Positions 5,093 to 57,926 of a DNA stretch of 64,000 bases are shown one piece after another. A model generated the notes under the pieces. It saw nothing but the letters and a program-made list of their open reading frames with translations, did no database searches and was not told the origin of the DNA. How positions within the stretch are numbered: the first letter of the stretch is position 1; every line of letters begins with the position of its first letter. The translations under genes and the position numbers were made by a program. Location: positions 5,568 through 69,567 of the forward strand of contig CAYHXX010000004.1 of the NCBI GenBank assembly GCA_964360785.1, written 5' to 3'. This stretch comes from an uncultured Gammaproteobacteria bacterium (lineage in GTDB: Bacteria > Patescibacteriota > Microgenomatia > Woykebacterales > RBG-16-39-9b).

Positions 5093-5131
5093 CCCATAGC
5101 ATTTGACTTTTGAACCTAAATATGCTATTAT
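5093..5131 (+). promoter_or_regulatory. promoter module cccatag-N-TTGACT-17-TATTAT, near-identical copy at 43213-43251
   Basis: cccatagcatttgacttttgaacctaaatatgctattat matches cccatagtacttgacttttgaagctaaatatactataat at about 35/39. Confidence 0.55.
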
Positions 5132-5198
5132 ATACACATAAGCTAAAAACTTATCTCGGCAGAACAAGTGTTCTCTCGAGTAGCACACTGGAGGAGAA

Positions 5199-5501
5199 AT
5201 GTCGGGCACGATTTGGGGGCTCTACGGTCTCGGATTCTTCACCGGAATCTTCGTGGTGGTCTTCAACAAGGACCAGCACGGGTGGCTCTGGAAGTTCAGC
5301 TGCATCTTTCTGGTCGGGTGGATCCCAGAGCGGATCTACACCTGGGGGCGGGCATTGTTCGGGCGGAAGCATACCATGTCGATCATGGGCTTCCTAACCC
5401 TTACCTTCCTGCTCATCTTCTTCTTCCCGGTCAGCATCCTGGTCTACTGGATGGCTAACCGGGGGAGGAGAACGGCAACGACGGGACCAGGCACGCCGTA
5501 G
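5199..5501 (+). CDS. small membrane protein (about 3 TM), GC-rich island
   Basis: SD ggaggag 2 nt before ATG; hydrophobic segments; high GC3. Confidence 0.45.
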   Translation: MSGTIWGLYGLGFFTGIFVVVFNKDQHGWLWKFSCIFLVGWIPERIYTWGRALFGRKHTMSIMGFLTLTFLLIFFFPVSILVYWMANRGRRTATTGPGTP

Positions 5502-5698
5502 GCACAACTCCAGGTGCGGGGCGGTCGGAAGTAGTTTCATGCGCAAGCACGAAACCTACCCGACCACCCTAATCCTAACTTTTAGTTTGCGAATTAGTTT
5601 CAATCCGCCAGCCGGCGGAGAAGCTAGCTCGGAAGCTAAAACTTCTTTCCGATAGAACAAGTTCATCGGAATATCACGGGGGATAGAAAGGAAAGACA

Positions 5699-5881
5699 AT
5701 GAGGTATTTGTTTTGGGCCGTGGGTTACGGACTGATCATTGGGGTCGTAATGACCGTCATGTTCGTCCATGAGCACATGGGCTCTACTACCGAAGGTCTG
5801 GAATGGTTCGTCATGATGACAGTGAACGGATCGTTCTTCTTCGGCGTACCCTTTGCCCTGCTGACGGTTCGGGAGGGGTAG
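5699..5881 (+). CDS. small membrane protein (2 TM), GC-rich island
   Basis: SD aaggaaag before ATG; two hydrophobic helices. Confidence 0.35.
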   Translation: MRYLFWAVGYGLIIGVVMTVMFVHEHMGSTTEGLEWFVMMTVNGSFFFGVPFALLTVREG

Positions 5882-6070
5882 CTGAATCATAGTTTCGGGC
5901 ACAAGAGTCACCTCTGCAACGGAATAATTGGTGGGTGCCTATTCCAAAGCGAGTAATCGCTGAGGAAGAAAGCACCCGCCCAACAACCAACTCTTCGACA
6001 GATAGGCACAATGGTGCTATACTTTATGGCTATCTGCGGGGGAGTTGAATGGAGTCAAGGAGAGAATCGC

Positions 6071-6562
6071 ATGGATTGCACATTTACACGGGTCATGTTT
6101 GGTCTTCTCGTCGTCATTCTGGTCGGGAACGCGATCACCCTGAAGAACGTTAGCCGCTCGGTGGCGCCGCGCACAGACGAGGAGAAGCGGGAAGCTATCG
6201 AGAGGACCGTGAGTAACCCGGCCGTGAATGGTGTCTATGATCCTGACGTCGTCGTGTACGCCACGACGCAGCTTCAAGGGATCTACGGGGACATGGTCAA
6301 CTATCCGGATCGACCGGTTCCGGTCGATGAAGTTCTACTCTACCTGACCTACCTCGCTGAGGGGTCGATGAGTAGACCAGACGCAATCGACTTCTGTAGC
6401 CGTGTACGTCCGCTCTGGAGTGCGTCGCACAGAATTGGCGATTTGCTTTTTGGAAAAGAGGCAACTCAGAATCAGCAAGACCTGTTCAGTAGAATTGACA
6501 ACGCCGTCGGTCAGAAAGACAAAGATGGTGCTTGTCAGTCTACACAGGAGGTGAGCACGTGA
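6071..6562 (+). CDS. hypothetical TM-anchored protein, GC-rich island (ORF track 6011..6562; ATG at 6071 preferred)
   Basis: SD aaggagag 6 nt before atggattgc; N-terminal TM then soluble domain; terminator hairpin at 6593-6637. Confidence 0.4.
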   Translation: MDCTFTRVMFGLLVVILVGNAITLKNVSRSVAPRTDEEKREAIERTVSNPAVNGVYDPDVVVYATTQLQGIYGDMVNYPDRPVPVDEVLLYLTYLAEGSMSRPDAIDFCSRVRPLWSASHRIGDLLFGKEATQNQQDLFSRIDNAVGQKDKDGACQSTQEVST

Positions 6563-6660
6563 ACAACGTTCCCACCGCAACAGGCACTTCGTGGATGAAT
6601 CCCCCCGGATCCACGAAGTGCCGTAAGTTTTTTCCAAATATTGAAATTAAAATCGAATAG

Positions 6661-7095
6661 TTAGTTGGAAGTATTGACGTTGACGTCGATATCGTTCTTG
6701 ATTGAGGTTTTACTTGAGCTGTTTGTTGTGGTTGAGCTAGAAGAGTTGTCACATTCAACCTTCACATTTATGTCCCCGCTACTTTTTTCATTCACATTCA
6801 CTTGATCTGCTGGAACGATTGTAACCACACCGTTGCGAGTCACTTTACAAGTTCCACTTGTGCTTTGGTTGGTTTGTTCTGACTTTACTTGATTGTTTAC
6901 CTCAACGTTTGTGGAGTTGTTACCATTTTCAACATTGACGTTACCAGTAGAGCTGTCTTCAACTTTTGTTCTTTCGACTGCTGGTTTGGTCACGGAGTCA
7001 TTTTTTATAAGATAATTGGAAAACACTGCGGTGAAGAAAATAGCAAGCAAAAACACCATACTTAGCGAAAATTTATGAGTCTTGAGAGTTTGCAT
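6661..7095 (-). CDS. secreted/anchored low-complexity N/S/T/V-rich protein
   Basis: start MQTLKTHKF with signal-like h-region MVFLLAIFFTAVF; NVNV/NSS-rich body; upstream part of the 6661..7401 ORF lacks support. Confidence 0.4.
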   Translation of the reverse strand: MQTLKTHKFSLSMVFLLAIFFTAVFSNYLIKNDSVTKPAVERTKVEDSSTGNVNVENGNNSTNVEVNNQVKSEQTNQSTSGTCKVTRNGVVTIVPADQVNVNEKSSGDINVKVECDNSSSSTTTNSSSKTSIKNDIDVNVNTSN

Positions 7096-7224
7096 TTCAA
7101 GAGGATTATGCCACTCAATAATAATTAAGTAAACAAGTAAGCACTGCGTTGACTTTACTAAAGTTTGATTTGTCGCTATAATCTCGATCGGTGTACGGGA
7201 GGAGTAGACAAAGGAGGCCCCGCC

Positions 7225-7443
7225 ATGGTCAAAGCAAACCAAGAAAAAATCCGGAAGTTGCGGATTGCGGTCCGGTACTTGCTCGAAAAAGGACAAATTG
7301 ACCCGAATATCGGGGGTAGCAGAGGTGCTCAGGTAAAGTTGGCAGAGCACTTCAAGGTTAGCCGTCAGCGTGTGCATCAGATTGTTGTGGAGGAGAGACA
7401 AAAGAAAGCTACGACAAAATCTCCTATATCACAGGCTAGCTAA
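7225..7443 (+). CDS. small HTH DNA-binding protein
   Basis: SD aaaggagg 7 nt before ATG at 7225; helix-turn-helix LAEHFKVSRQRVHQIV. Confidence 0.4.
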   Translation: MVKANQEKIRKLRIAVRYLLEKGQIDPNIGGSRGAQVKLAEHFKVSRQRVHQIVVEERQKKATTKSPISQAS

Positions 7444-8197: not shown

Positions 8198-8678
8198 CAC
8201 AACAATCAAGAAATTAATTCAAGAAAAGAAGATCAAGATAAATCCGTTTTCCAATGAATCTGTGGGGGCTGTTTCCATTGATCTTCATCTCGATGAAACC
8301 GCGCTCAATCCAGATACTCGTGTGGAAACAGATCTGAAAGATTTTCATCTCACACCAGATGAGTTTTATCTTGCCGCAACAGCGGAGTTTGTCGAACTTC
8401 CGAGCAATATTGTGGCCCGTGTTGTTCCAAGATCTTCGCTTGCCCGACTTGGAGTTTTGGCGACTTTTGATGCTGATATCTTGCCGCCAAATTATGCTGG
8501 AAAACCATTGTTGACTCTAAAAAATCTCTCGCGCAAACCAGTATTACTTAAACCCGGACTTGCGGTCGCGCAGATTATGTTTGAACAAGTTGATCAAGAG
8601 GTTGAAGGGTACAAAAGCCGTTACAACCATAAAAAGATCGAGGAAAGTAAACTTTGTGAGGAAATAGATGGCAAATAG
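8184..8678 (+). CDS. second Dcd/dUTPase-superfamily protein, short form, possibly a dUTPase
   Basis: MVLSNTTIKKLI..INP, RSSLARLGVLATFDADILPPNYAGKPLLTLKN; 14-nt overlap with the upstream dcd. Confidence 0.65.
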   Translation: MVLSNTTIKKLIQEKKIKINPFSNESVGAVSIDLHLDETALNPDTRVETDLKDFHLTPDEFYLAATAEFVELPSNIVARVVPRSSLARLGVLATFDADILPPNYAGKPLLTLKNLSRKPVLLKPGLAVAQIMFEQVDQEVEGYKSRYNHKKIEESKLCEEIDGK

Positions 8679-10239
8679 AACAGAAAAGTGGCCGCTTTTA
8701 TACGAAAACATTTTACGGGTTGGTGATCCAGACCAGTCGGTTGGGGTAGTTACACTCTGGACTGAGCGGGATGTGATTAAAGATTCACTCGAAAAGAAAG
8801 ATTACGCTGCCATTGGCAATCTGTATTCGCCAGCTGGCATAAACCACATGATGCGCAATGTTCTGGCCAACCCCAGCATTCGCCATCTAATAGTGTGGGG
8901 AGCGGATATGTCTGGTTCTGGTTCTTCTTTGCGTAATTTCTTTGAAAAAGGAATCGATAACGATTACAAGATTATTGATGCACCTGGTCAGATTGAGACT
9001 GAGATTCCCAAAGAAGCAGTCGAATCCTTCCGAACAAATGTTGAACTGATTGATATGAGAGGAAAACCAAAAGAAGAAGTTGTGAAAGCTGTCAAAAGTT
9101 TTAAAAAAGAAAAACCATTCCGAAAAGAAGCAGCTCTTTTCCCAGCCGCAGAGAAAAAAGTTGTCAGCTGGCCATCAGAGCAGATTAGTTTCCGGATTGA
9201 ATCGCCAAAAGTTGCTAGTCTTTGGTTGAAAGTTCTCAACATGGTGACCAAATACGGTCGGGTCAAATCTACCCGCTATGCCACGACCAATGAACTTAAA
9301 GAATTGCTCAATCTCAACTCTGTTCTTACAGACGAGGATCCAGACAATGAATATTTCCCCGAATATCTTCCCTTTACTACAAACGAACTGAAAGCTTATT
9401 ACCCAGAGTGGCTGACTGCTCGTCGTATTCCCGGAATGGCTTACAATTATGGTGACCGGATGCGCAATCTGGATGGAATCAATCAAATTGAAGAGATCAA
9501 AAAACTCTTACAGACTCGTCCAGATAGTAAAAAAATGATTGCATCTTTATATAATGTAAAAGTTGACTGGGCAGCAGCTAATACGGGTGACACACCTTGC
9601 ATCACCCAAGTGATTTGTGGTGTGCAAGATAAGAAACTCTTTATGACAGTCCATGTCCGCTCCCAGGATATGTTCCATGGTTGGCCGAGAAATATGTTTG
9701 CTGCCCGCAAAATGCAAAAAGAAATCGCCGACTCGGGTGGATATCCAATGGGGAAACTCGCGATGATTACTCACAGTGCCCATATGTACGCCGATGATTG
9801 GGCGACTGCACAGGAGCTTCTCGACAAGTACTATATAAAAGAAACAGCGCAGTATAAACCCGGTTTTCATTTCCAAGAAGACCCGAGGGGCAACTGGTTG
9901 GTAGACATTGATTGGGAAAACAAACTTATATTGGCCAAGTTGATGAGCCCAGATATGAGTACAGAGTTGACTATGTTTCATGGAAAAACGGCTAAAGAAG
10001 TGATAAAACAAATCGGTGAGTGGGAAATCCTGACTTTACCTTCACATGCACTTGATTTTGGAGCCGAGCTACAAAAAGCGGAGATTGCACTAAACTATGA
10101 TCTGCATGATTGGAAACAAGATCGAGCTATCAATTTCGAAAGACAGAAGGTGGAAAGCCCTGTGGTTGAAAAGTCAGAGCGAGTACTGCCGCCAACCCGC
10201 TATATCAAACGCGGGAAGAAATCTATCCCAATAAAATAG
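8668..10239 (+). CDS. fusion protein: N-terminal MtrA-like domain + thymidylate synthase (ThyA)-fold domain
   Basis: N-terminus KWPLLYENILRVGDPDQSVGVVTL..NPSIRHLIVWG..EIPKEAVESFRTNVELIDM resembles tetrahydromethanopterin S-methyltransferase subunit A; C-terminal half has ThyA motifs incl. nucleophile DTPCITQVI, VRSQDMFHGWPRNMFAARKM, ITHSAHMY; 11-nt overlap with upstream gene. Confidence 0.55.
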   Translation: MANRTEKWPLLYENILRVGDPDQSVGVVTLWTERDVIKDSLEKKDYAAIGNLYSPAGINHMMRNVLANPSIRHLIVWGADMSGSGSSLRNFFEKGIDNDYKIIDAPGQIETEIPKEAVESFRTNVELIDMRGKPKEEVVKAVKSFKKEKPFRKEAALFPAAEKKVVSWPSEQISFRIESPKVASLWLKVLNMVTKYGRVKSTRYATTNELKELLNLNSVLTDEDPDNEYFPEYLPFTTNELKAYYPEWLTARRIPGMAYNYGDRMRNLDGINQIEEIKKLLQTRPDSKKMIASLYNVKVDWAAANTGDTPCITQVICGVQDKKLFMTVHVRSQDMFHGWPRNMFAARKMQKEIADSGGYPMGKLAMITHSAHMYADDWATAQELLDKYYIKETAQYKPGFHFQEDPRGNWLVDIDWENKLILAKLMSPDMSTELTMFHGKTAKEVIKQIGEWEILTLPSHALDFGAELQKAEIALNYDLHDWKQDRAINFERQKVESPVVEKSERVLPPTRYIKRGKKSIPIK

Positions 10240-23819: not shown

Positions 23820-24686
23820 ATGTCGATAGACGAAACGGTCGTAAGGCCGCAAGTTGCCCTTTTCATCGATCTGGAAAACATCCGCTACAGTTTCTTGAGC
23901 CAGTTCAAATATGAACCGGATTTCAAGTCACTTTTCGGTGTTGCCCGGGCGGAAGGTCCTGTCTCGGTCGCCTACGCCTACGCCGATTTTTCACGTCACC
24001 CTGAGGCGGTGCGTCGGCAACTGGAAGCGTTGGGGATCACCTGCCGTGACACCCCAGTGCGGGTTCAGCAATCCAACGGCGAGACTCGGGTCAAAAGTAC
24101 TGTAGACCCGCAAATGATGCTCGACATCTTAGAGACGGCGCTTGACCGGCCGCAGGTTAAGACCTTCATCGTTGGGACCGGGGACTCGGACTTTTTGCGC
24201 ATCGTGACGATGTTGCAAAACCGATTCGAGAAACGGGTCTTGGTAATCGGGGTGCCGGGAACCCTGAGCCAGGATCTTGCGGCAGCGGCTACAGACGTCA
24301 TAAACCTGGAGCCGGTTGTCATTACGGGTGACAACCCGATCGTCGGGGCGATCGTTCATCTAATGAGGACGAAAACACCGCCGGTGGGGTTCTGGACACT
24401 CCCGCAACTTGCCAAGTGGGCGAACCAGACCCATAATGGGGTTCCGGGAACGGATAGCGAAAGGTCGGCTGCTATCTCGTTCATGGTCCAGAACGGTTTA
24501 ATCAGGCAGGAGGTCCTGCCGGCCGAAGGCGAGCTAACCGAACGACGGGCCAGCAGTATTGATGAGGAGAACGAGCTGGTCAAAGAGATTCTCGCAGGCA
24601 GCACACCAAAACAGACACCCGGTCAAAGTCTTCTCGAGGCGTTCAGGGAGGCCGACTTGTCTGGAGAAAGTAACGCCAACAACTGA
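23820..24686 (+). CDS. NYN-domain (LabA-like) protein with C-terminal LOTUS/OST-HTH-like domain, GC-rich
   Basis: VALFIDLENI, TFIVGTGDSDFLRIV, RVLVIGV typical NYN core; C-terminal WTLPQLAKWAN..GLIRQE helix-rich domain. Confidence 0.55.
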   Translation: MSIDETVVRPQVALFIDLENIRYSFLSQFKYEPDFKSLFGVARAEGPVSVAYAYADFSRHPEAVRRQLEALGITCRDTPVRVQQSNGETRVKSTVDPQMMLDILETALDRPQVKTFIVGTGDSDFLRIVTMLQNRFEKRVLVIGVPGTLSQDLAAAATDVINLEPVVITGDNPIVGAIVHLMRTKTPPVGFWTLPQLAKWANQTHNGVPGTDSERSAAISFMVQNGLIRQEVLPAEGELTERRASSIDEENELVKEILAGSTPKQTPGQSLLEAFREADLSGESNANN

Positions 24687-34189: not shown

Positions 34190-34264
34190 AATGGGTTCCA
34201 AGTTTAACATCGTTCTCGTTATTAGCCTCACCCTTATGGAGGGCGGCTCTGACGTTGACCGGTA
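34190..34264 (+). CDS. candidate 24-aa hydrophobic peptide MGSKFNIVLVISLTLMEGGSDVDR, near-leaderless
   Basis: promoter ttgaca(34153)-17/18-tagtat ends 8 nt before the ATG; terminator hairpin gacctcctaccacaggaggtttttt follows at 34294-34320. Confidence 0.2.
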
Positions 34265-34351
34265 AGTTACCTGGAACAACAACGAACGAGCTGACCTCCT
34301 ACCACAGGAGGTTTTTTCGTTTGTTGGAGCTCAAAGCCATCCGGAAGTGAG

Positions 34352-34855
34352 GTGGAAAGTTTCCACCGCCAGGCCAAGCAAGGAGGAATGGTAATGGCCG
34401 AAGGTAGTCTCAACGGGTTCAAGGGAGAGATCGTGCGGTTCCGGTTGCAAGATGTGCCAGAACCTGTGGTAGTCTGTTACGTCAAGAGGACTGGCCTTGC
34501 CGCGGTGTGGATCAAGGCGTTGGGACGTCACGACGCGGAGGTAGAGCTATCCGGCGCTGGCTTTACTGAGATCGAGGCCGCGACCAACGCTGTTCGGCAG
34601 CTGCTCGGTGAGGCTGACGGCAACCAGTTGAAAGTCTACCGAGCGGAGCCCAAGCGGGAGAAGCGCAGTGGCGTTAGCGTAGTTCAGTCGGCCATCTCCT
34701 ACGATGTCGGCGCCGAATACCGCGAGGAGTTCGGACAGGGGACTGGTGCCCACCGACTTGCCACCCAAGCTTATATCATGGCGCTCTTCACGGCGATCAA
34801 TAAGATCCACGTGAAGTTGGCGAACCGCGAGATGGTACCGGTAAGGACAGCATAG
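34352..34855 (+). CDS. hypothetical protein, GC-rich (likely start ATG 34394 after SD aaggagga)
   Basis: high GC3 ORF; no recognised motif. Confidence 0.4.
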   Translation: MESFHRQAKQGGMVMAEGSLNGFKGEIVRFRLQDVPEPVVVCYVKRTGLAAVWIKALGRHDAEVELSGAGFTEIEAATNAVRQLLGEADGNQLKVYRAEPKREKRSGVSVVQSAISYDVGAEYREEFGQGTGAHRLATQAYIMALFTAINKIHVKLANREMVPVRTA

Positions 34856-41054: not shown

Positions 41055-41408
41055 ATGAAGCTAGCGGATTGGAAAAAACTTCTTATTCCACCAGTCGCGA
41101 TTTACGCTGTTATCTTCCTTTTTATTTCCGCCCTTATTGGCGCCAAAATCGACGCACATGGTCTCTGGGTTTGGATCGTCACCCTTGGAATTTCAATTGT
41201 TGGGCTATACATAGCTACCAATTACGTCAAGCCAAAATTTTGGCAGGACGGGCTAAGATACGGTTTTGTTTGGTTGGTAATCCTTGTTTTTCTTGATTTG
41301 ATTTTGACCGTTCCGTTCACAGGTATGGGATATTTCTCCGATTGGAGATCTTTTGTGCCTTACGTTCTCACCCTTGCTTTTCCCACAATTTTAGCTAAGA
41401 AGACTTAA
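41055..41408 (+). CDS. hypothetical membrane protein
   Basis: four hydrophobic segments. Confidence 0.4.
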   Translation: MKLADWKKLLIPPVAIYAVIFLFISALIGAKIDAHGLWVWIVTLGISIVGLYIATNYVKPKFWQDGLRYGFVWLVILVFLDLILTVPFTGMGYFSDWRSFVPYVLTLAFPTILAKKT

Positions 41409-41493
41409 ATATCCCAACAATTTGAAGACCTAGAGTATAATGGCTGCAATAGCAGGAAGAATTCATCTGCTGAAAAGTTAGTGGGAGGGTGCG

Positions 41494-41736
41494 ATGCGAG
41501 TGGTTACCGCCGACTCTCTGAACACCCTTCGGGTTGGGCAGAGAGCCAGATACACTGGGATGGTGAGGCGAAGAGAGCTTACGGCGCTCGTTCGTGTCAA
41601 CGGGGTCTACAGCCGTCACGCGGGTTTGCGCATCGAAGTGATCAAGAAGCAGAAGCCGGCGCGCAGCTTCAAGATTGGAGATACCTTCACCATCGCTTTC
41701 GGCAAGCACGAGACGCTAGCGGTGGAGGACGACTAA
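41494..41736 (+). CDS. small hypothetical protein 1 of GC-rich four-ORF operon
   Basis: SD gggaggg 4 nt before ATG; GC3-rich. Confidence 0.35.
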   Translation: MRVVTADSLNTLRVGQRARYTGMVRRRELTALVRVNGVYSRHAGLRIEVIKKQKPARSFKIGDTFTIAFGKHETLAVEDD

Positions 41737-41774
41737 TCGGCAAGGAAGTAGCTGGCGAAAAGCCAGGAGGTGTT

Positions 41775-41963
41775 ATGCCCAGAATGATCATTGAAATCGA
41801 GTCGGAAGACGGGATCGCGATCGACGAGTTGGTTGCGGCGGCTGCCCTTTCTAAGTTGATCCTGGGTCTTGTTGATCCCGGGTCAATCCCCGCCGAACCC
41901 AAGCGTATTCCTGTTCCGTTTGGTCGGGGCCAGCTCTTTCTGAGCTGGACCTTCGAGGCTTAA
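41775..41963 (+). CDS. small hypothetical protein 2 (62 aa)
   Basis: preceded by hairpin-SD module tagctggcgaaaagccaggagg. Confidence 0.35.
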   Translation: MPRMIIEIESEDGIAIDELVAAAALSKLILGLVDPGSIPAEPKRIPVPFGRGQLFLSWTFEA

Positions 41964-42004
41964 CCACCAATACGCAGTTGGCGAAAAGCCAGGAGGAGAG
42001 AGTC

Positions 42005-42304
42005 GTGTACGTTAAAGTTGTCAAAGTCCCAGCGGGGGAGGCGCCTTTGCATGTTCGGCAAGCTTGGGTGGGGACTGTTTTCCAAGCTGTAGGACCCAGG
42101 GAGTATTGGGAAGAGGGGATTGTCACCGGAAAAGACAATCCTGCTCGCCTTGGCTACGCCGTACCTCAAGAGCTTGCGGTGGAAGCACTCGAGCGAAGGA
42201 ACCCAGCAGCGGCAGACTGGTTCCGAGAACATTTACGCTACCATTCCAACAACCTAATCTTCGGAGCGGACGAGGTCGTGGAAATCCACAACGAAGGAAT
42301 GTAG
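42005..42304 (+). CDS. small hypothetical protein 3 (GTG start)
   Basis: preceded by agttggcgaaaagccaggagg, 9 nt to GTG. Confidence 0.3.
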   Translation: MYVKVVKVPAGEAPLHVRQAWVGTVFQAVGPREYWEEGIVTGKDNPARLGYAVPQELAVEALERRNPAAADWFREHLRYHSNNLIFGADEVVEIHNEGM

Positions 42305-42327
42305 CTGGCGAAGGCCAAGGAGGAGAC

Positions 42328-42684
42328 ATGCACAGTTACGGTATCGATCACGGTCCGGATGAGGTTGCCCAGCCGCAACCCATGTCGAACGGCTTCTACG
42401 TTGAGGTGTACAAGCTCAATGCTGTTCGTTTCAGCATAGCTCATCCCGCTCTCAACAATCGCCAAGCTCGGGTCGGTATCTTCGTAGTGATCGACGAAGT
42501 CACCCAGAGCTGGGGTGAAGACGGAAGAGGAGATCGAGGAATCGCCTTTACTGGCTACCTCAAGCCGGAAAAGGGTGATCAGTCTCTGCACTGGGTGAGG
42601 GGCGTTTACAGCTTCAGCCGTCACGGTGGTAGTATCGAGACGGAATCTGAGATCGAGCTCAGGATCGCTCCGGTCGCCGCCTGA
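42328..42684 (+). CDS. small hypothetical protein 4 (118 aa)
   Basis: preceded by tagctggcgaaggccaaggagg; terminator 42737-42777 follows. Confidence 0.35.
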   Translation: MHSYGIDHGPDEVAQPQPMSNGFYVEVYKLNAVRFSIAHPALNNRQARVGIFVVIDEVTQSWGEDGRGDRGIAFTGYLKPEKGDQSLHWVRGVYSFSRHGGSIETESEIELRIAPVAA

Positions 42685-42849
42685 TCAAGAACATACCTAA
42701 CGCGAGAGTGGAGAGAAGATCAATTCCTGTCCACAAGGGTCGTCGCATCATGCACGACCCTTTCGCGTTTTAATTTTCAAAAAACTTGTCCCGATTGAAT
42801 CGGGATTTGCTTATCTTAGGTCCTGAAATTAAAATAAAAGAAAAAGCTC

Positions 42850-43197
42850 ATGACAGACATCATTGCGAAAAATCTTGAAACCTCTGAAAATTCACGAACC
42901 TTTCTGGATGGCAGTAAACGTACAGTTGTTATTTTAGAATCCGTTGCTATTGGTCGGGGAGAATATCTGCCGGGCTGGCAATGGTCGAAGCACGCTGGTG
43001 CGCAGACTGGAAAAGCTTCAGAATCTCACATTGGTTACATCATTTCCGGGAGTATGGTATCCAAAGGTTCTGATGGAGCAGAAGTTACCGTCGGACCAGG
43101 AGATGCTTTTGAAGTCCAACCTGGACATGATGCTTGGGTACTCGGAAATGAACCTTGCATCGCACTCGATTTTGAGCATTTAGGTAAGGAAAAGTAA
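42850..43197 (+). CDS. cupin-domain protein
   Basis: two-motif cupin pattern (G..H..GYIISG / GPGDAFEVQPGHDAW). Confidence 0.55.
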   Translation: MTDIIAKNLETSENSRTFLDGSKRTVVILESVAIGRGEYLPGWQWSKHAGAQTGKASESHIGYIISGSMVSKGSDGAEVTVGPGDAFEVQPGHDAWVLGNEPCIALDFEHLGKEK

Positions 43198-43677: not shown

Positions 43678-44058
43678 ATGAAAACAAAAATAGAAACTTC
43701 TGAAGCGCCGGGTGCACCGGGACTTTTGTCACAGGCAGTTGTAAGTGGCGATACTATTTATGTAGCCGGTCAAATACACAACACTGCTGATGGCAAAATG
43801 GTTGAAGGTTCAACTGAAGAAAAAGTTCACCAGATAATGAAAAATTTCGCTGCAATTCTGAAAGCTGCCAATTCGGACTTTGCACACGTAGTCAAAGTCA
43901 ATATTTATGTTACTGATATGGCAGAACTTCCAAAACTCAACGAAGTCTACAAAACCTATTTCACCACTGAACCCTTGCCAGTGCGAGAAGCAGTCTGCGT
44001 GAAAGCCTTACCTCTCGGCGCGAATATTGAAATGAGCTGCATCGCCTCCAAAAGCTAA
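43678..44058 (+). CDS. ridA: RidA/YjgF-family enamine/imine deaminase
   Basis: APGAPGLLSQAVVSGDTIYVAGQI...NIYVTDM...R.AV.V..LP. Confidence 0.85.
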   Translation: MKTKIETSEAPGAPGLLSQAVVSGDTIYVAGQIHNTADGKMVEGSTEEKVHQIMKNFAAILKAANSDFAHVVKVNIYVTDMAELPKLNEVYKTYFTTEPLPVREAVCVKALPLGANIEMSCIASKS

Positions 44059-46613: not shown

Positions 46614-46828
46614 TAACTCAATTATAGCAGAAATTCTTTAGCCCAAGTTTCCGCTAGTTCGATTTCACTTTTTCCCAACAAAAAACCCCGATTTAGTCGG
46701 GGTTACTTGTCCTAAGAAAACCTCCGCTAGATCAGCGGATTGGAGATTTGCTTGGGGATCGAGGCGTAACTGGCGGTTACGTCTCGGTGGATCTCTCATA
46801 ACTTTTTCCTTTCCTGGTTGCGGACTGG

Positions 46829-47149
46829 TTACTGCTGATTCACTAAGGTGCGCAGCTTGTCAGCGTACAGGAAGCTGTAGATCCCCACCATCGCTGTTGC
46901 GATGAGTGGCGGACAGAACAATTCGAAGTACACGTTCTTATCCCCGAGGACCAAGGGCCAAGGGGCGGCTAACATTGACCCAGCCAGGATGAGTAACCAG
47001 ACCAGTGGATGGAGCTTTGCTGCCCACTCTCTGGCCGGTGAGAACTTGAAGTCCTTGTCGAGAAAGGCGATGCACATGTAGATCACGAAAAACACCGAGA
47101 TCTCGAAACCCAAAAGGGCCAGCACCGTGTTGTGTACCAAATCCTCCAT
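46829..47149 (-). CDS. hypothetical membrane protein
   Basis: three hydrophobic segments; terminator hairpin ccccgatttagtcgggg downstream on the minus strand. Confidence 0.4.
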   Translation of the reverse strand: MEDLVHNTVLALLGFEISVFFVIYMCIAFLDKDFKFSPAREWAAKLHPLVWLLILAGSMLAAPWPLVLGDKNVYFELFCPPLIATAMVGIYSFLYADKLRTLVNQQ

Positions 47150-47172
47150 AATTCCTCCTCGGCTTTCGCCGT

Positions 47173-47448
47173 TTAGAGCCCTTCCATTCGATATTGCGGG
47201 CTCGGTCCCAATTCCTTCTTTTCTACAGCGTCAGGCGGTGGATCCACCAACTTCCAGCGTGTATCACCGCCAGCGTAATCGCTGTCCTGGTCAACGTAAC
47301 CTCGTGGGTCAAGTGCATTGTTCAGCGATTGGACCACACCGTTCACACTGAGGCATGTTCGGGTTGCAATCTCTCGCGCAGTGCCCGCTCCTCCCAGCTC
47401 ATGCAGAGCTTGGAGTATGGTCCTTTGGATGGGCTTTAGGCTTGGCAT
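47173..47448 (-). CDS. winged-helix DNA-binding protein, GC-rich
   Basis: RTILQALHELGGAGTAREIATRTCLSVNGVVQSLNNAL HTH. Confidence 0.45.
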   Translation of the reverse strand: MPSLKPIQRTILQALHELGGAGTAREIATRTCLSVNGVVQSLNNALDPRGYVDQDSDYAGGDTRWKLVDPPPDAVEKKELGPSPQYRMEGL

Positions 47449-47598
47449 GGCCGCTCCTTACCGAATGCCTGGTTTAGCTTATCAACATTATACTTCGGTT
47501 ATACAAATTTTGAGAAATAAGTCGGGGAAAAAGAGAAGAGCCCCCGCCGTAATGAGGGAGGGGCTCTTGGTTGTGCCGTCACGTCGAGGAGCATTGGG

Positions 47599-48108
47599 TT
47601 AGCTTGCGGCCGCGTCGTTGCTCGTGGCGTCCGCCTGTTCCTCGCTGATCGGCAGGATGTCAGGCGAGTTCTTGTCCTCCTGAATCTCCTTCATCCTGTC
47701 CTTGCAGATTCCTGCCACCGCGCTCCAGATCCACCTGGAGATCACCTCGTCGAGGTGCGATAAGAGGCCGGAAACCGCGGCAGCGAGCTCATCCTGCACG
47801 AAGCCGCCGGCGAAGCGGGCGTCTCCGCCTTCGAGGATCCACGGCGCCTCATTGACGATATAGCTGGACGATTGGCCCGTGCGATGACATAGTTCGGCCT
47901 TCGCGCGGGCGATCTCGTCGTACTTGTGCGCCCAGCTCTCCTTGGGGTCCACGGCGATAGTGGTCTCGTAGAGATGAAACGACGGTTCGATCACCACGAT
48001 GTGGAGGTTCCTCCTGCCGCCGCCGAGCTCCGCGAGGAGCGCGTCGATCGAAGGGCGAACCAAGGCGACGGCCTGGTCGAAGACTTCCTGGGTAACCAGA
48101 AACGACAT
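47599..48108 (-). CDS. hypothetical protein, GC-rich (possibly GlcG/DUF336-like)
   Basis: high GC3; terminator hairpin gagcccctccctcattacggcgggggctc on minus at about 47527-47570. Confidence 0.35.
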   Translation of the reverse strand: MSFLVTQEVFDQAVALVRPSIDALLAELGGGRRNLHIVVIEPSFHLYETTIAVDPKESWAHKYDEIARAKAELCHRTGQSSSYIVNEAPWILEGGDARFAGGFVQDELAAAVSGLLSHLDEVISRWIWSAVAGICKDRMKEIQEDKNSPDILPISEEQADATSNDAAAS

Positions 48109-55732: not shown

Positions 55733-56788
55733 ATGTTGAAAGTCGGAATTGTCGGGCTCCCAAACGTGGGTAAGTCTACCTTATTTAATGCTTTACTCAA
55801 AAAACAAGTCGCGCAAGCAGCAAACTATCCATTTACTACAATCGATCCAAATATTGGCGTAGTCGAAGTTCCCGACGAGCGTCTGCAAAAGTTGGCCGAG
55901 GTGGTCAAAACTGAAAAAATTATTCCGGCAGCTGTCGAGTTTGTCGATATTGCTGGTTTGGTTAAGGGTGCAGCTGCTGGTGAAGGTCTTGGAAACAAAT
56001 TCCTTTCCCATATTCGTGAAGTCGATGCTATTGCCCATGTGGTTAGAGAATTCGAGGATTCTGATGTACTGCGAAGTGATAGCTCGACTGATGCAAAGAG
56101 TGATGTTGAAACGATTAACACGGAGCTGATATTGGCTGATCTGGAAACGATCGAGAAGTTAGTTTTTGGTGCTAAGAAGGATGTCAAAGCCAAGGAAAAA
56201 AGTGCTGAGAAAAAATTGGAAGCCTACCTTAAACTTAAAGGAGGGTTGGAAAAGGGAACATTGGCCAAAGATATTGAGATTGATCCCGAACTAGCGGTTG
56301 GTTTACCGCTGATAACTATCAAGCCCACGATTTACGTTATTAACGTTGCTGAGTCCGAGTTGAAACAGGCAATCAATTTGGAATTAGAACCAAAGGTTGT
56401 TATTTGTGCCAAAGTCGAAGCTGAGCTAGTTGAATTAAATCCTGATGAGCAAAAAGATTACTTGAAAGAGTTAGGATTACATGAATCAGGATTGGAAAGG
56501 TTGATTAGCGAAAGTTACAAGCTACTCGGCTTGGTCACTTACTTCACTGCCGGTGAGAAGGAAGTTCGTGCCTGGACTATACATATTGATACAAAAGCAC
56601 CTCAAGCAGCGGGTGTAATCCACACAGATTTTGAAAAAGGCTTTATTAAAGCGGAGGTGATTAACTGGGAAAAGCTTGTTACTGTTGGTGGTTGGAATCA
56701 AGCAAGGGAAAAAGGTTTAGTTCGCCTTGAAGGTAAAGACTACCTCTTCCAAGACGGGGACACGACCATTTTCAAATTCAACGTTTAA
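55733..56788 (+). CDS. ychF: ribosome-binding ATPase YchF
   Basis: GIVGLPNVGKSTLFNAL, TGS domain C-terminus. Confidence 0.9.
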   Translation: MLKVGIVGLPNVGKSTLFNALLKKQVAQAANYPFTTIDPNIGVVEVPDERLQKLAEVVKTEKIIPAAVEFVDIAGLVKGAAAGEGLGNKFLSHIREVDAIAHVVREFEDSDVLRSDSSTDAKSDVETINTELILADLETIEKLVFGAKKDVKAKEKSAEKKLEAYLKLKGGLEKGTLAKDIEIDPELAVGLPLITIKPTIYVINVAESELKQAINLELEPKVVICAKVEAELVELNPDEQKDYLKELGLHESGLERLISESYKLLGLVTYFTAGEKEVRAWTIHIDTKAPQAAGVIHTDFEKGFIKAEVINWEKLVTVGGWNQAREKGLVRLEGKDYLFQDGDTTIFKFNV

Positions 56789-56875
56789 AAAAAGAGCCGA
56801 CTGCTTCGAATGTGGAAGCAGCCGGTTTTGCGTTGGCATCGTGCGAACTCGTGTCAGCAGCCGTGACGTAGGGTA

Positions 56876-57280
56876 TTACGAGTGGATGGGACGCATTTGC
56901 CGATGGTAAGCCAGACGTCGTTTCACTTCATTAAGTTTCTCTTCCTCCCGTTGACGGCGTTTCGCATCACGCACGAGGCGCGCGATTCGAGAGCGCAGGA
57001 CTGATGGACGCTTCTTCGCTGGCGTTCCCCGCATCTTCAAGCGCAGCCGGCGCAGTTGGTTGACGTCGATGCCACCGTTGCTCGTGATGCAGAGGTTAAC
57101 TTGCCGTCGGGTGTTGCGGTGGCTCTTGTGTGAACCGTCCGACGGTTGGAGGATTCGGTGCAGGTACCCTGTCACCGTTTCACGTCCTTCCTCGAGAAGC
57201 AGGTGACCCGCTCTTTCGAGAGCGATGGCTCGGGGAACACAATTTCCCGCATCCTCCCACGCAGGGATATTTAGTTCCAT
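56876..57280 (-). CDS. hypothetical basic protein, GC-rich
   Basis: R/K-rich C-terminus; high GC3. Confidence 0.3.
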   Translation of the reverse strand: MELNIPAWEDAGNCVPRAIALERAGHLLLEEGRETVTGYLHRILQPSDGSHKSHRNTRRQVNLCITSNGGIDVNQLRRLRLKMRGTPAKKRPSVLRSRIARLVRDAKRRQREEEKLNEVKRRLAYHRQMRPIHS

Positions 57281-57445
57281 GGTGGACTCTCCCTTCGGTA
57301 ATGACCTGATTGCTCGCTTACTTCTGGCCTATAATATAAAACTAATTGAGCTAAATTGCAAATCCAGTTTGTAGGTGGAGAAAAATTGGGCCGAGTGCAG
57401 GGTGTGCAATCGGCCCGTGACGGACTATTCGGTTGGTTTGGCGTA

Positions 57446-57769
57446 TCAGGCTGCGGTGTTTCGCCTCTGGCGTTCGGAGCGTTCTGAGTTGTCGATCATT
57501 GCCCAGAGACCGTTGCTGAAAGCGTCGGCTTGTTCGCTCCTTGGTGCCTTGGCGACCTTCGCCAGAAACTTGCGCAAGTTGTGTGGTCTGATGCAGAGCC
57601 CTTCGGCGGTGCCGTCGAAAAGTTGCTTGTAGGTCAGCCCAAGCACCGGCCGTCGCCGAGGGTTGGCGTAATCGTACAGGTGTCGAAGCATGTGATGCTT
57701 GACACGAGTGTCGAGCTGCGCTGGCGCTTTGGACGCTGCGGCCGCAATCTTACTCCGATCTATCTTCAT
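57446..57769 (-). CDS. hypothetical protein, GC-rich
   Basis: SD aaggag before ATG on minus strand. Confidence 0.35.
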   Translation of the reverse strand: MKIDRSKIAAAASKAPAQLDTRVKHHMLRHLYDYANPRRRPVLGLTYKQLFDGTAEGLCIRPHNLRKFLAKVAKAPRSEQADAFSNGLWAMIDNSERSERQRRNTAA

Positions 57770-57926
57770 CTACGACTCCTTCGTAAATAGCCTGCCTTAT
57801 CCGATAGGCGAGATATTATTACTTATCAAGCAAAAATGCAAATCCTTTTGATTTTTCTAGGTTCTTGCCTGTAAGTTAGGACCTATGATATACTCCGAGC
57901 GAAATATTCTTAGGGAAGAAGAAATA

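Follow-up and report, generated by a model that had tools for sequence, protein, structure and literature searches.

A repeated hairpin and Shine-Dalgarno module as a candidate translation-initiation region and recombination joint in a mosaic array of small GC-rich genes

Why should each internal gene of a small operon be preceded by the same short hairpin, fused directly to a strong ribosome-binding site? The question is raised by an array of four small GC-rich genes (G1–G4) in a 64-kb stretch of contig CAYHXX010000004.1, the whole of which we call the window. We propose, at a probability only slightly better than even (about 0.55), that the repeated element, here called the module, is a portable translation-initiation region and a recombination joint of horizontally acquired, mosaic cassette arrays in what is probably a genome of the candidate phyla radiation (CPR, or Patescibacteria). 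The initial annotation had described four consecutive GC-rich open reading frames (ORFs) of 80, 62, about 99 and 118 amino acids, the third starting with GTG, and the same hairpin plus Shine-Dalgarno (SD) element before genes 2–4. The same ORFs and the same GC-rich island were recovered here, with the GTG of G3 at 42005, and repeat and folding analyses agree on the element. All three copies lie where they had been placed, except that the third ends at 42323 rather than 42324 (Table 1).

The repeat search groups the three copies in one family (D1). A 20-mer from the module, with up to three mismatches allowed, occurs twice in the window, compared with 0.00 expected from 100 shuffles. The parts of the module follow a fixed order, beginning with a purine box (GGAAGGAA) and continuing through tnnAG or a stop codon, the hairpin CUGGC-GAAA(A)-GCCAG with a stem of 4–5 bp, GGAGG and a gene-specific spacer, for a total of about 25–40 nt. 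In every intergenic copy the distance from stop codon to hairpin is 0–2 nt and a strong SD lies directly 3' of the hairpin. For almost all copies the minimum free energy prediction is this small hairpin, with the SD unpaired. The leader of G1 (41456-41493) contains a degenerate fourth copy. A consensus scan found no promoter, −10 or −35 match inside the three junction modules, and GGAGG, rather than a run of U, comes after their hairpins; a role as intrinsic terminator or attenuator was rejected because there is no U-tract. An RNase III processing site needs an RNA duplex of about two helical turns (roughly 20 bp), and a site of this kind, as in the intercistronic hairpins of T7, was likewise rejected since the stems measure only 4–6 bp.

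Table 1. Features of the array and of related loci. Positions are those of the window unless another locus is named; gene boundaries are from the ORF list; in gene orders, L is leader, m module and T terminator.
Feature	Coordinates	Strand	Details
Cassette promoter motif (type-1)	41420-41441	+	ATTTG-N9-AGTATAAT; −10 box TATAAT at 41436-41441
G1 leader	41442-41493	+	GGAAGAATTCAT CTGCT GAAAA GTTAG TGGGAGG; aligned with other leaders
G1	41494-41736	+	80 aa, ATG start
Junction 1	41737-41774	+	leader remnant 41737-41751; hairpin CTGGC/GCCAG 41752-41766; loop GAAAA
Module copy 1	41749-41770	+	tagCTGGCgaaaaGCCAGgagg
Junction 1 SD	41766-41770	+	GGAGG; spacer to ATG comes next
G2	41775-41963	+	62 aa, ATG start
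Junction 2	41964-42004	+	G2 3' untranslated region; hairpin TTGGC/GCCAG 41978-41992; basal U-G pair
Module copy 2	41976-41996	+	agTTGGCgaaaaGCCAGgagg
Junction 2 SD	41992-41996	+	GGAGG; then spacer GAGAGTC
G3	42005-42304	+	99 aa, GTG start
Junction 3	42302-42327	+	G3 stop TAG; hairpin (C)TGGC/GCCA(A) 42305-42318; loop GAAG
Module copy 3	42302-42323	+	tagCTGGCgaagGCCAAggagg; 4-bp stem
Junction 3 SD	42317-42323	+	AAGGAGG; then spacer
G4	42328-42684	+	118 aa, ATG start
3' module	42698-42773	+	box ACGCGAGAGTGGAGAGAAGATCAATTCCTGT (42700-42730); terminator hairpin GGGTCGTCG...CGACCC (42737-42760); CTTTCGCGTTTT
3' module relatives, L008	2004-2096, 3030-3104, 6921-7006, 9056-9134		after unrelated genes
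3' module relative, L183	4636-4702		after unrelated gene
Second cassette unit	46829-47510	-	promoter motif ATTTGTATAACCGAAGTATAAT (47508-47487); 91-aa gene 47448-47173; 106-aa membrane gene 47149-46829
Look-alike junction	47147-47186	-	taaACGGCgaaaGCCGAggaggaattATG; TAA ACGGC GAAA GCCGA GGAGG aatt ATG, between the 91-aa and 106-aa genes
Gene order, window array			L-G1-m-G2-m-G3-m-G4-T
Gene order, L180			promoter-L-G2-m-Z
Gene order, L010			Y(173 aa)-m-pentapeptide-repeat gene; also L-G3-m-Z(141 aa)
Gene order, L008 array 1			L-G3-m-G3'-m-X(81 aa)-T
Gene order, L008 array 2			L-M-m-N-T; directly upstream of ridA gene
Gene order, L007			promoter-L-G4

The module recurs at other loci. A covariance model was built from eight module copies and searched in the window and in four unrelated loci, L007, L008, L010 and L180, of which L008 is a 938-kb contig of a metagenome-assembled genome with two arrays. 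It returned 15 copies at E ≤ 0.012, seven of them outside the training set. Each copy stands before a gene, and at least ten different genes are preceded in this way. Junction 2 and the G1 leader copy, both training sequences, score 45.6 and 40 bits, and junction 3, a non-training copy, scores 22.3 bits (E = 1e-4). Elsewhere in the 64-kb window the model found no copy outside the array, so the module is specific to these arrays, and host genes in general do not carry it; a REP-type element was rejected on the same result and on the fusion to an SD. The initial annotation had also allowed that homologous operons might lack the module, but it is kept at all four loci.

Around the module, the order of genes differs from array to array (Table 1), and in L183 and L008 the arrays occupy other chromosomal sites. 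The clearest comparison is with L180, where positions 189-466 match window positions 41730-42007 at 89% identity. This block spans the last codons of G1, a leader remnant of L180 type, module 1, G2, its 3' untranslated region and module 2, after which the genes differ, G3 following in the window and Z in L180; the Z genes of L180 and L010 are 78% identical. Window G4 and its L007 homologue are 87% identical in a local alignment that begins inside the module. The spacer between SD and start codon goes with the downstream gene. G3 is preceded by versions of the consensus GAGTCGTG in the window (GAGAGTC), L010 and L008, G2 by TGTTATG in the window and L180, and Z by GGAGATC(C)GTG. Since the spacers are gene-specific and the alignments end where they do, the exchange points lie in or just upstream of the hairpin. 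As far as these alignments show, the conserved module forms the 5' boundary of each cassette, and it is there that arrays cease to be homologous.

Two scars point the same way. Between G1 and module 1 the window retains a leader remnant (tcggcaaggaagtag; compare cgcggaaggaattcag in L180), and the L180 counterpart of this segment, 41737-41751, is the promoter-proximal leader of the G2 homologue. In L010 an out-of-frame remnant of the G3 C terminus (...FGADEVEEIHNERM*) lies at 1262-1312, between the stop codon of Y and the module of the pentapeptide-repeat gene. Read as remnants, both scars record the joining of units that had once been separate. At the DNA level, the 25–40 nt of near-identity would serve as the site where recombination joins, deletes and swaps cassettes, most likely by homologous recombination.

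A dedicated recombinase that recognizes the short inverted repeat, excising and inserting cassettes in the manner of integrons or shufflons, would also account for breakpoints at or beside the hairpin. The cassette would then be the module plus one ORF, with a single promoter per array, as in integrons, and in L181 a gene for an rve-family (insertion sequence-type) transposase (203-1219) directly precedes a G3-like array with a degenerate leader. This is, however, the only recombinase seen beside any array, and the genes called in L008, L010 and L183, like those within ±10 kb of the window array, include none with an integrase or recombinase domain. Moreover, the arms are only 5 bp long with no attC-like R and L boxes, the module lies 5' of its ORF and contains the SD, and the scars and degenerate copies resemble what homologous or illegitimate recombination leaves behind. 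We consider site-specific recombination highly improbable. An integron attC array in the strict sense was rejected, there being no RYYYAAC...GTTRRRY core sites and no IntI-type recombinase among the called genes within ±10 kb.

Conservation of the module is also out of step with that of the genes it precedes. Before the G3 homologues it is about 88% identical although the synonymous sites of G3 are saturated (window compared with L010 and L008; synonymous differences per site, pS, 0.56-0.64; synonymous substitutions per site, dS, ≥ 1.0). Within G3, synonymous-codon identity is 0.64-0.73 at the ends and 0.46-0.49 in the middle, albeit on small numbers. Conservation of the module and of the adjoining ends of G3 fits either selection on the module or homogenization by recombination tracts that span the junctions. 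Under our proposal, recombination between cassettes would also keep the module copies homogeneous despite saturation of the flanking synonymous sites.

At the RNA level, the module would give every cistron a strong SD in a host that is largely without one. No SD-like motif was found within 20 nt upstream of 43 of the 73 long ORFs in the window (~59%). Many ORFs have a TATAAT-like box 7–10 nt before the start (for example at 1214, 2998, 10820, 16007, 32742, 45762 on the minus strand, 54691 on the minus strand and 55733), which suggests that leaderless mRNAs are widespread in the host genome. The cassette genes, unlike many host ORFs, come with full GGAGG sites and a leader some 50 nt long. Because most host ORFs lack an SD and many are apparently leaderless, a portable strong SD is a plausible requirement for internal foreign cistrons. 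The hairpin itself may add protection of the 5' end or help to position the ribosome.

Several results weigh against this proposal. In the 15 confident copies, 90.5% of the cells in the stem are standard pairs and the same pair occupies a given position in 11–14 of the 15, but no stem pair has changed on both sides, and the covariation score (0.097, compared with 0.122 in shuffles) and the paired fraction are not above those of shuffled controls. The helix is conserved as sequence, with no sign of selection for pairing. Disruption of the 5' arm in silico shifts the unpaired probability of the SD both ways, with means of about 0.53 for native and 0.46 for randomized arms and a large scatter; as accessibility of the SD is altered so inconsistently, a role of the stem as an insulator was rejected. 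At the distant G3 loci L181 and L183 the SD is retained and the hairpin is degenerate or absent, and still more distant G3 relatives (L131, L132 and L187) lie in ordinary contexts without the module. The sample is small, with only six or seven loci carrying the module. The exact module pattern gave 47 singletons in the metagenome collection, mostly unrelated and in high-GC or coding contexts, and the matches look like chance; two of them, L135 and L149, were read and judged unrelated. Finally, differential deletion from a longer ancestral array, with no gain of cassettes, could explain part of the mosaic. A degenerate form of the pattern matched at least 120 stretches in IMG/VR, one match each, which we take as chance because the pattern is too loose. 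We found no paper on such modules in CPR genomes, which is weak negative evidence.

Conservation of the stem as sequence is what base-specific recognition would produce. The palindrome CTGGC-N4-5-GCCAG might thus be the site of a trans-acting regulator, either an RNA-binding repressor or activator or a DNA-binding protein, that co-regulates all cistrons. The flanking GGA-rich boxes are conserved too, and the common promoter and 3' module suggest a shared regulatory regime. But the conserved sequence is accounted for just as well by recent common descent or gene conversion, and no candidate regulator is at hand, the only nearby helix-turn-helix (HTH)-like protein being a weak Pfam match (E = 0.05) in another island. 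CsrA-type sites usually present GGA in the hairpin loop; here the GGA motifs lie outside it. We think a regulator site quite unlikely.

The module might instead act in mRNA processing and stability. The initial annotation had proposed RNase processing sites or translational couplers, and neither role is supported by the results here. If the transcript were cut just upstream of the hairpins, each hairpin and its SD-bound ribosome would block 5'-to-3' decay and so yield separately stable cistrons. The position of the hairpin, which in all intergenic copies falls between the stop codon and an adjoining strong SD, is suited to this, as are the unpaired SD of the predicted fold and the SD-like purine box upstream, and STAB-SD, ermC and hbs are precedents in Bacillus. 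Protection against RNase J1 by an SD and ribosome is described in two papers (PMC5737220, PMC3997798). Against processing stand the lack of covariation and the loss of the hairpin in L181 and L183. In addition, the 4–5-bp stem is weak, at about −6 to −9 kcal/mol, and in the leader copies the hairpin lies about 25 nt from the predicted 5' end, a non-terminal position unless the leader is itself processed. A processing or stability element is in our judgement unlikely.

The same lack of covariation, with decay of the hairpin in distant relatives, would be expected if the module had no special function and were merely the 5' untranslated region of an ancestral gene, copied by tandem duplication, with an incidental hairpin and arrays that differ by loss only. 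Tandem duplication does occur, since G3 and G3' of L008 are tandem paralogues, each with a module, and G1 and G4 are possible distant paralogues (E = 0.04). However, the genes behind the module are mostly unrelated (G2, G3, G4, Z, X, the pentapeptide-repeat gene and membrane proteins), and the module remains well conserved where synonymous sites are saturated. The remnants of the G2 leader and the G3 tail show joined units, and G2 and G4 are each the promoter-proximal first gene elsewhere, in L180 and L007. An origin by duplication and loss alone is very doubtful.

Base composition also bears on our proposal that the module joins horizontally acquired cassettes. GC content of the four-gene island is 0.55-0.575 across 41500-42700, with sharp edges to flanks of about 0.40-0.42 and a value of about 0.42-0.45 for the whole window. 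GC at third codon positions (GC3) is 0.55-0.74 in G1–G4, highest in G1 (0.74), compared with 0.29-0.43 in the adjacent host genes, and is consistent with a foreign origin of the array. In all arrays with adequate flanking sequence the array exceeds its flanks by 3–16 points of GC. Housekeeping genes flank the window array, and the window homologue of the ridA gene next to L008 array 2 is at 43678-44058; no tRNAs were found in the window. The identical array and flanks are present in six independent assemblies (Hainich groundwater samples, 0.1-µm filters), which excludes an assembly artefact.

The initial annotation had left room for ORFs that fail coding tests and for a match to a known noncoding RNA. 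In Rfam 15 no family reached the gathering score anywhere in the window, and none reached E ≤ 1 in 41350-42900. Ratios of nonsynonymous to synonymous substitution (dN/dS) of 0.30 for G2, 0.22 and 0.18 for G3 (dS ≥ 1) and 0.37 for G4 identify these three as real protein-coding genes under purifying selection. G1 has no relative except itself among 5.8 billion proteins; it counts as an ORF whose SD is good and whose GC3 resembles that of coding sequence. It resembles G4 weakly (BLASTP E = 0.04) through a shared motif, ...V.GVYS(FS)RH.G..., which is also a 19-nt DNA repeat (41607-41625 and 42612-42630), and the two may be distant paralogues. For G2 and G4 a single relative each was found, P0009 (90% amino-acid identity), the first array gene in L180, and P0002 (86% identity), the first gene after promoter and leader in L007.

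None of the four proteins matched Pfam, PHROGs, PADLOC or NCBIfam, so the earlier statement that none is recognizable holds for curated libraries; it fails for G3, which belongs to an uncharacterized family of 797 clusters at E ≤ 1e-3 in a profile search (full HMMER scan). Members are about 100 amino acids long, with the pattern V-K-[VI]-P-x-G-E-A-P ... R-x-x-W-V-G ... A-A-x-W ... F-G-x-D-E, and some are fused to other domains in proteins of 160–320 amino acids. Window G3 has all the invariant and nearly invariant columns of a 71-sequence alignment. No Pfam model describes the family, one of the 71 members giving a weak HU_inhibitor match. An AlphaFold model of G3 from this alignment is confident (predicted local distance difference test, pLDDT, 94.2; predicted template modelling score, pTM, 0.85) and has a small β-sheet core with a helical hairpin. 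Foldseek found no significant PDB or BFVD match for it, the best being weakly PsaE-like or SH3-like. G3 flags a large protein family with a confident model and no structural counterpart in those collections. Its two homologues at 65–68% identity are in L008 and L010. Only two relatives, both distant, were found in species-representative genomes (Candidatus Wildermuthbacteria and Candidatus Staskawiczbacteria), in monocistronic, module-free settings. These two lineages, the 0.1-µm filters of the groundwater samples and the 938 kb of the related contig L008 together make a CPR/Patescibacteria host probable.

A phage origin of the array was rejected. There is no PHROG match, tblastn of G3 and G4 against GenBank phages gave nothing, and no G3 relatives were found in IMG/VR. 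An 18-mer from the leader has one chance match in IMG/VR, and a 19-mer from the terminator has none.

The window array also carries signals at its two ends, where promoter and terminator occur only once each. The promoter motif occurs exactly twice in the window, at the start of the array and on the minus strand at 47487-47508, compared with 0.00 expected, and it also precedes GC-rich cassettes in L007 and, at two sites, in L008; we infer that it acts as a promoter. The leader that follows (...GGAAGGAATTCAG, hairpin and SD) is common to L010, L180 and L008, with a related form in the window, L007 and L181. In the predicted fold of the G1 leader the SD is partly paired (z = −0.47).

The 3' module is predicted to fold at −34 kcal/mol (z = −5.9), with an outer stem (ACGCGAG/CUUUCGCGU) around two hairpins. 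Its 31-nt box matches L008 2010-2040, a stretch that follows an unrelated gene, at 30 of 31 positions. L008 has four further copies of the terminator hairpin and L183 has one; compensatory changes are seen in 5 of the 11 pairs predicted for it. No Rfam family matches the 3' module. The initial annotation had placed a terminator at the end of the operon, as do we, the hairpin being followed by an interrupted U-tract; because of this interruption a simple consensus scan missed it. Around their variable orphan genes, the arrays are put together from the same few standard parts, namely promoter, leader, junction and 3' module.

Beyond the 3' module, window positions 42770-42850 (TTTCAAAAAACTTGTCCCGA...GATTTGCTTATCT) resemble L007 565-660, upstream of the G4 homologue, and include a sigma-70-like TTGCTT-17-TAAAAT for the cupin gene. 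Motifs of AAGGAAAAAGT type recur near promoters in L008, L010 and L183.

Among the genes of the other arrays, only the pentapeptide-repeat gene of L010 is recognized by Pfam (E = 8e-33), and several partner cassettes, judged by their residues, encode small membrane proteins. In L008 the gene caller and the ORF list both give a single 193-aa ORF (8476-9057) that reads through a module copy at 8685-8715, the usual TAG being out of frame. Either two cassettes have fused into one gene, or a frameshift or an error in sequencing joins them. The L008 array designated A lies between direct repeats of at least 100 nt. It is bracketed by paralogous coiled-coil genes (...FMDEKDLQAI...) at 5629-5859 and 7040-7270, both on the minus strand, with near-identical 5' regions, an arrangement suggestive of duplication, or of the array's insertion into a duplicated gene.

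The window holds at least six further GC-rich islands (0.50-0.62, compared with ~0.42), at 600-1200, 5100-6600, 24000-24600, 34200-34800, 46800-48100 and 56700-57900. Those at 46800-48100 and 56800-57800 carry small orphan genes on the minus strand with their own promoters, SDs and terminators. The former contains the second cassette unit of Table 1, whose 91-aa gene is weakly HTH-like and whose 106-aa gene is preceded by a look-alike of the module (taaACGGCgaaaGCCGAggagg). Here the stem has a double change, U-A to C-G, the sole one seen; homology of this copy is marginal, with a covariance-model E of 2.9.

The genomes of CPR bacteria are tiny and streamlined, and the way in which new genes are gained and tried out there is poorly understood; the locus gives a concrete architecture. 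In our proposal, foreign GC-rich orphan genes are packaged with a standard ribosome-binding module that doubles as a recombination joint, and each genome carries different arrays. A bolder version, which we hold to be quite improbable, is that CPR/Patescibacteria carry an undescribed gene-cassette platform with standardized promoter, leader, junction and 3' module, whose orphan genes are actively exchanged, possibly via excised intermediates or a recombinase acting on the hairpin. If true, this platform would be equivalent in function to integrons or to PeSL mini-circles, but at the level of the translation-initiation module. If the pattern is general, the sequence of the module would also be a means of tracing lineage-specific accessory genes in metagenomes.

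How does this architecture compare with known systems? An integron, or a cluster of attC sites lacking an integron integrase (CALIN), shares with it one promoter, an array of promoterless single-ORF cassettes, hairpin repeats between them and variable, mostly orphan content. The sites recombined by IntI, attC, are imperfect palindromes of 57–141 nt with R'', L'', L' and R' boxes, located 3' of the ORF, whereas the repeat described here has a 5-bp stem and a loop of 4–5 nt, lies 5' of the ORF and includes the SD. Phage morons, which are autonomous units of promoter, gene and terminator with deviant GC content, are likewise self-contained, and the GC content of the present unit, which has its own promoter motif and terminator, stands 14–16 points above its surroundings; the array differs in lying among chromosomal housekeeping genes rather than in a prophage, and in having several genes with a repeated internal junction. 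In 5' stabilizers and insulators of ribosome-binding sites (STAB-SD of cryIIIA, ermC, hbs, and synthetic 5' hairpins), a hairpin, an SD-like purine tract or both also lie directly 5' of the ribosome-binding site. Those elements form a single leader at the 5' end of an mRNA, whereas the module stands before every cistron, across unrelated genes and genomes. REP/BIME, ERIC and Correia-type repeats are short palindromes between operon genes as well, but their stems are longer, a genome holds tens to hundreds of them, and they are usually found on the 3' side of genes with no SD attached.

The nearest parallel is found in T4-type phages, in their PeSL (promoter-early stem-loop) cassettes. As described by Arbiol et al. 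(2010; PMC2839356) and Comeau et al. (2014; PMC4122927), these consist of a strong, conserved sigma-70-like early promoter and a stem-loop terminator flanking ORFan genes, and recombination between copies drives modular shuffling. Likewise here, a short stem-loop motif flanks small ORFan genes, and recombination between its copies would explain insertions, deletions and replacements between relatives. In those accounts each PeSL gene is its own transcription unit, whereas the junction hairpin described here is fused to an SD within a polycistron and has neither promoter nor terminator; the setting also differs, a bacterial chromosome in place of a T4-type phage genome. Because of its promoter- and terminator-less junctions, the SD fusion inside a polycistron and a chromosomal context with no phage signal, the array is not a member of the PeSL class. 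By this comparison PeSL is its closest analogue, at the evolutionary level only. If the pattern proves general, the shuffling of mobile regulatory cassettes would extend from T4-type phages to bacterial chromosomes, and from promoters and terminators to translation-initiation motifs.

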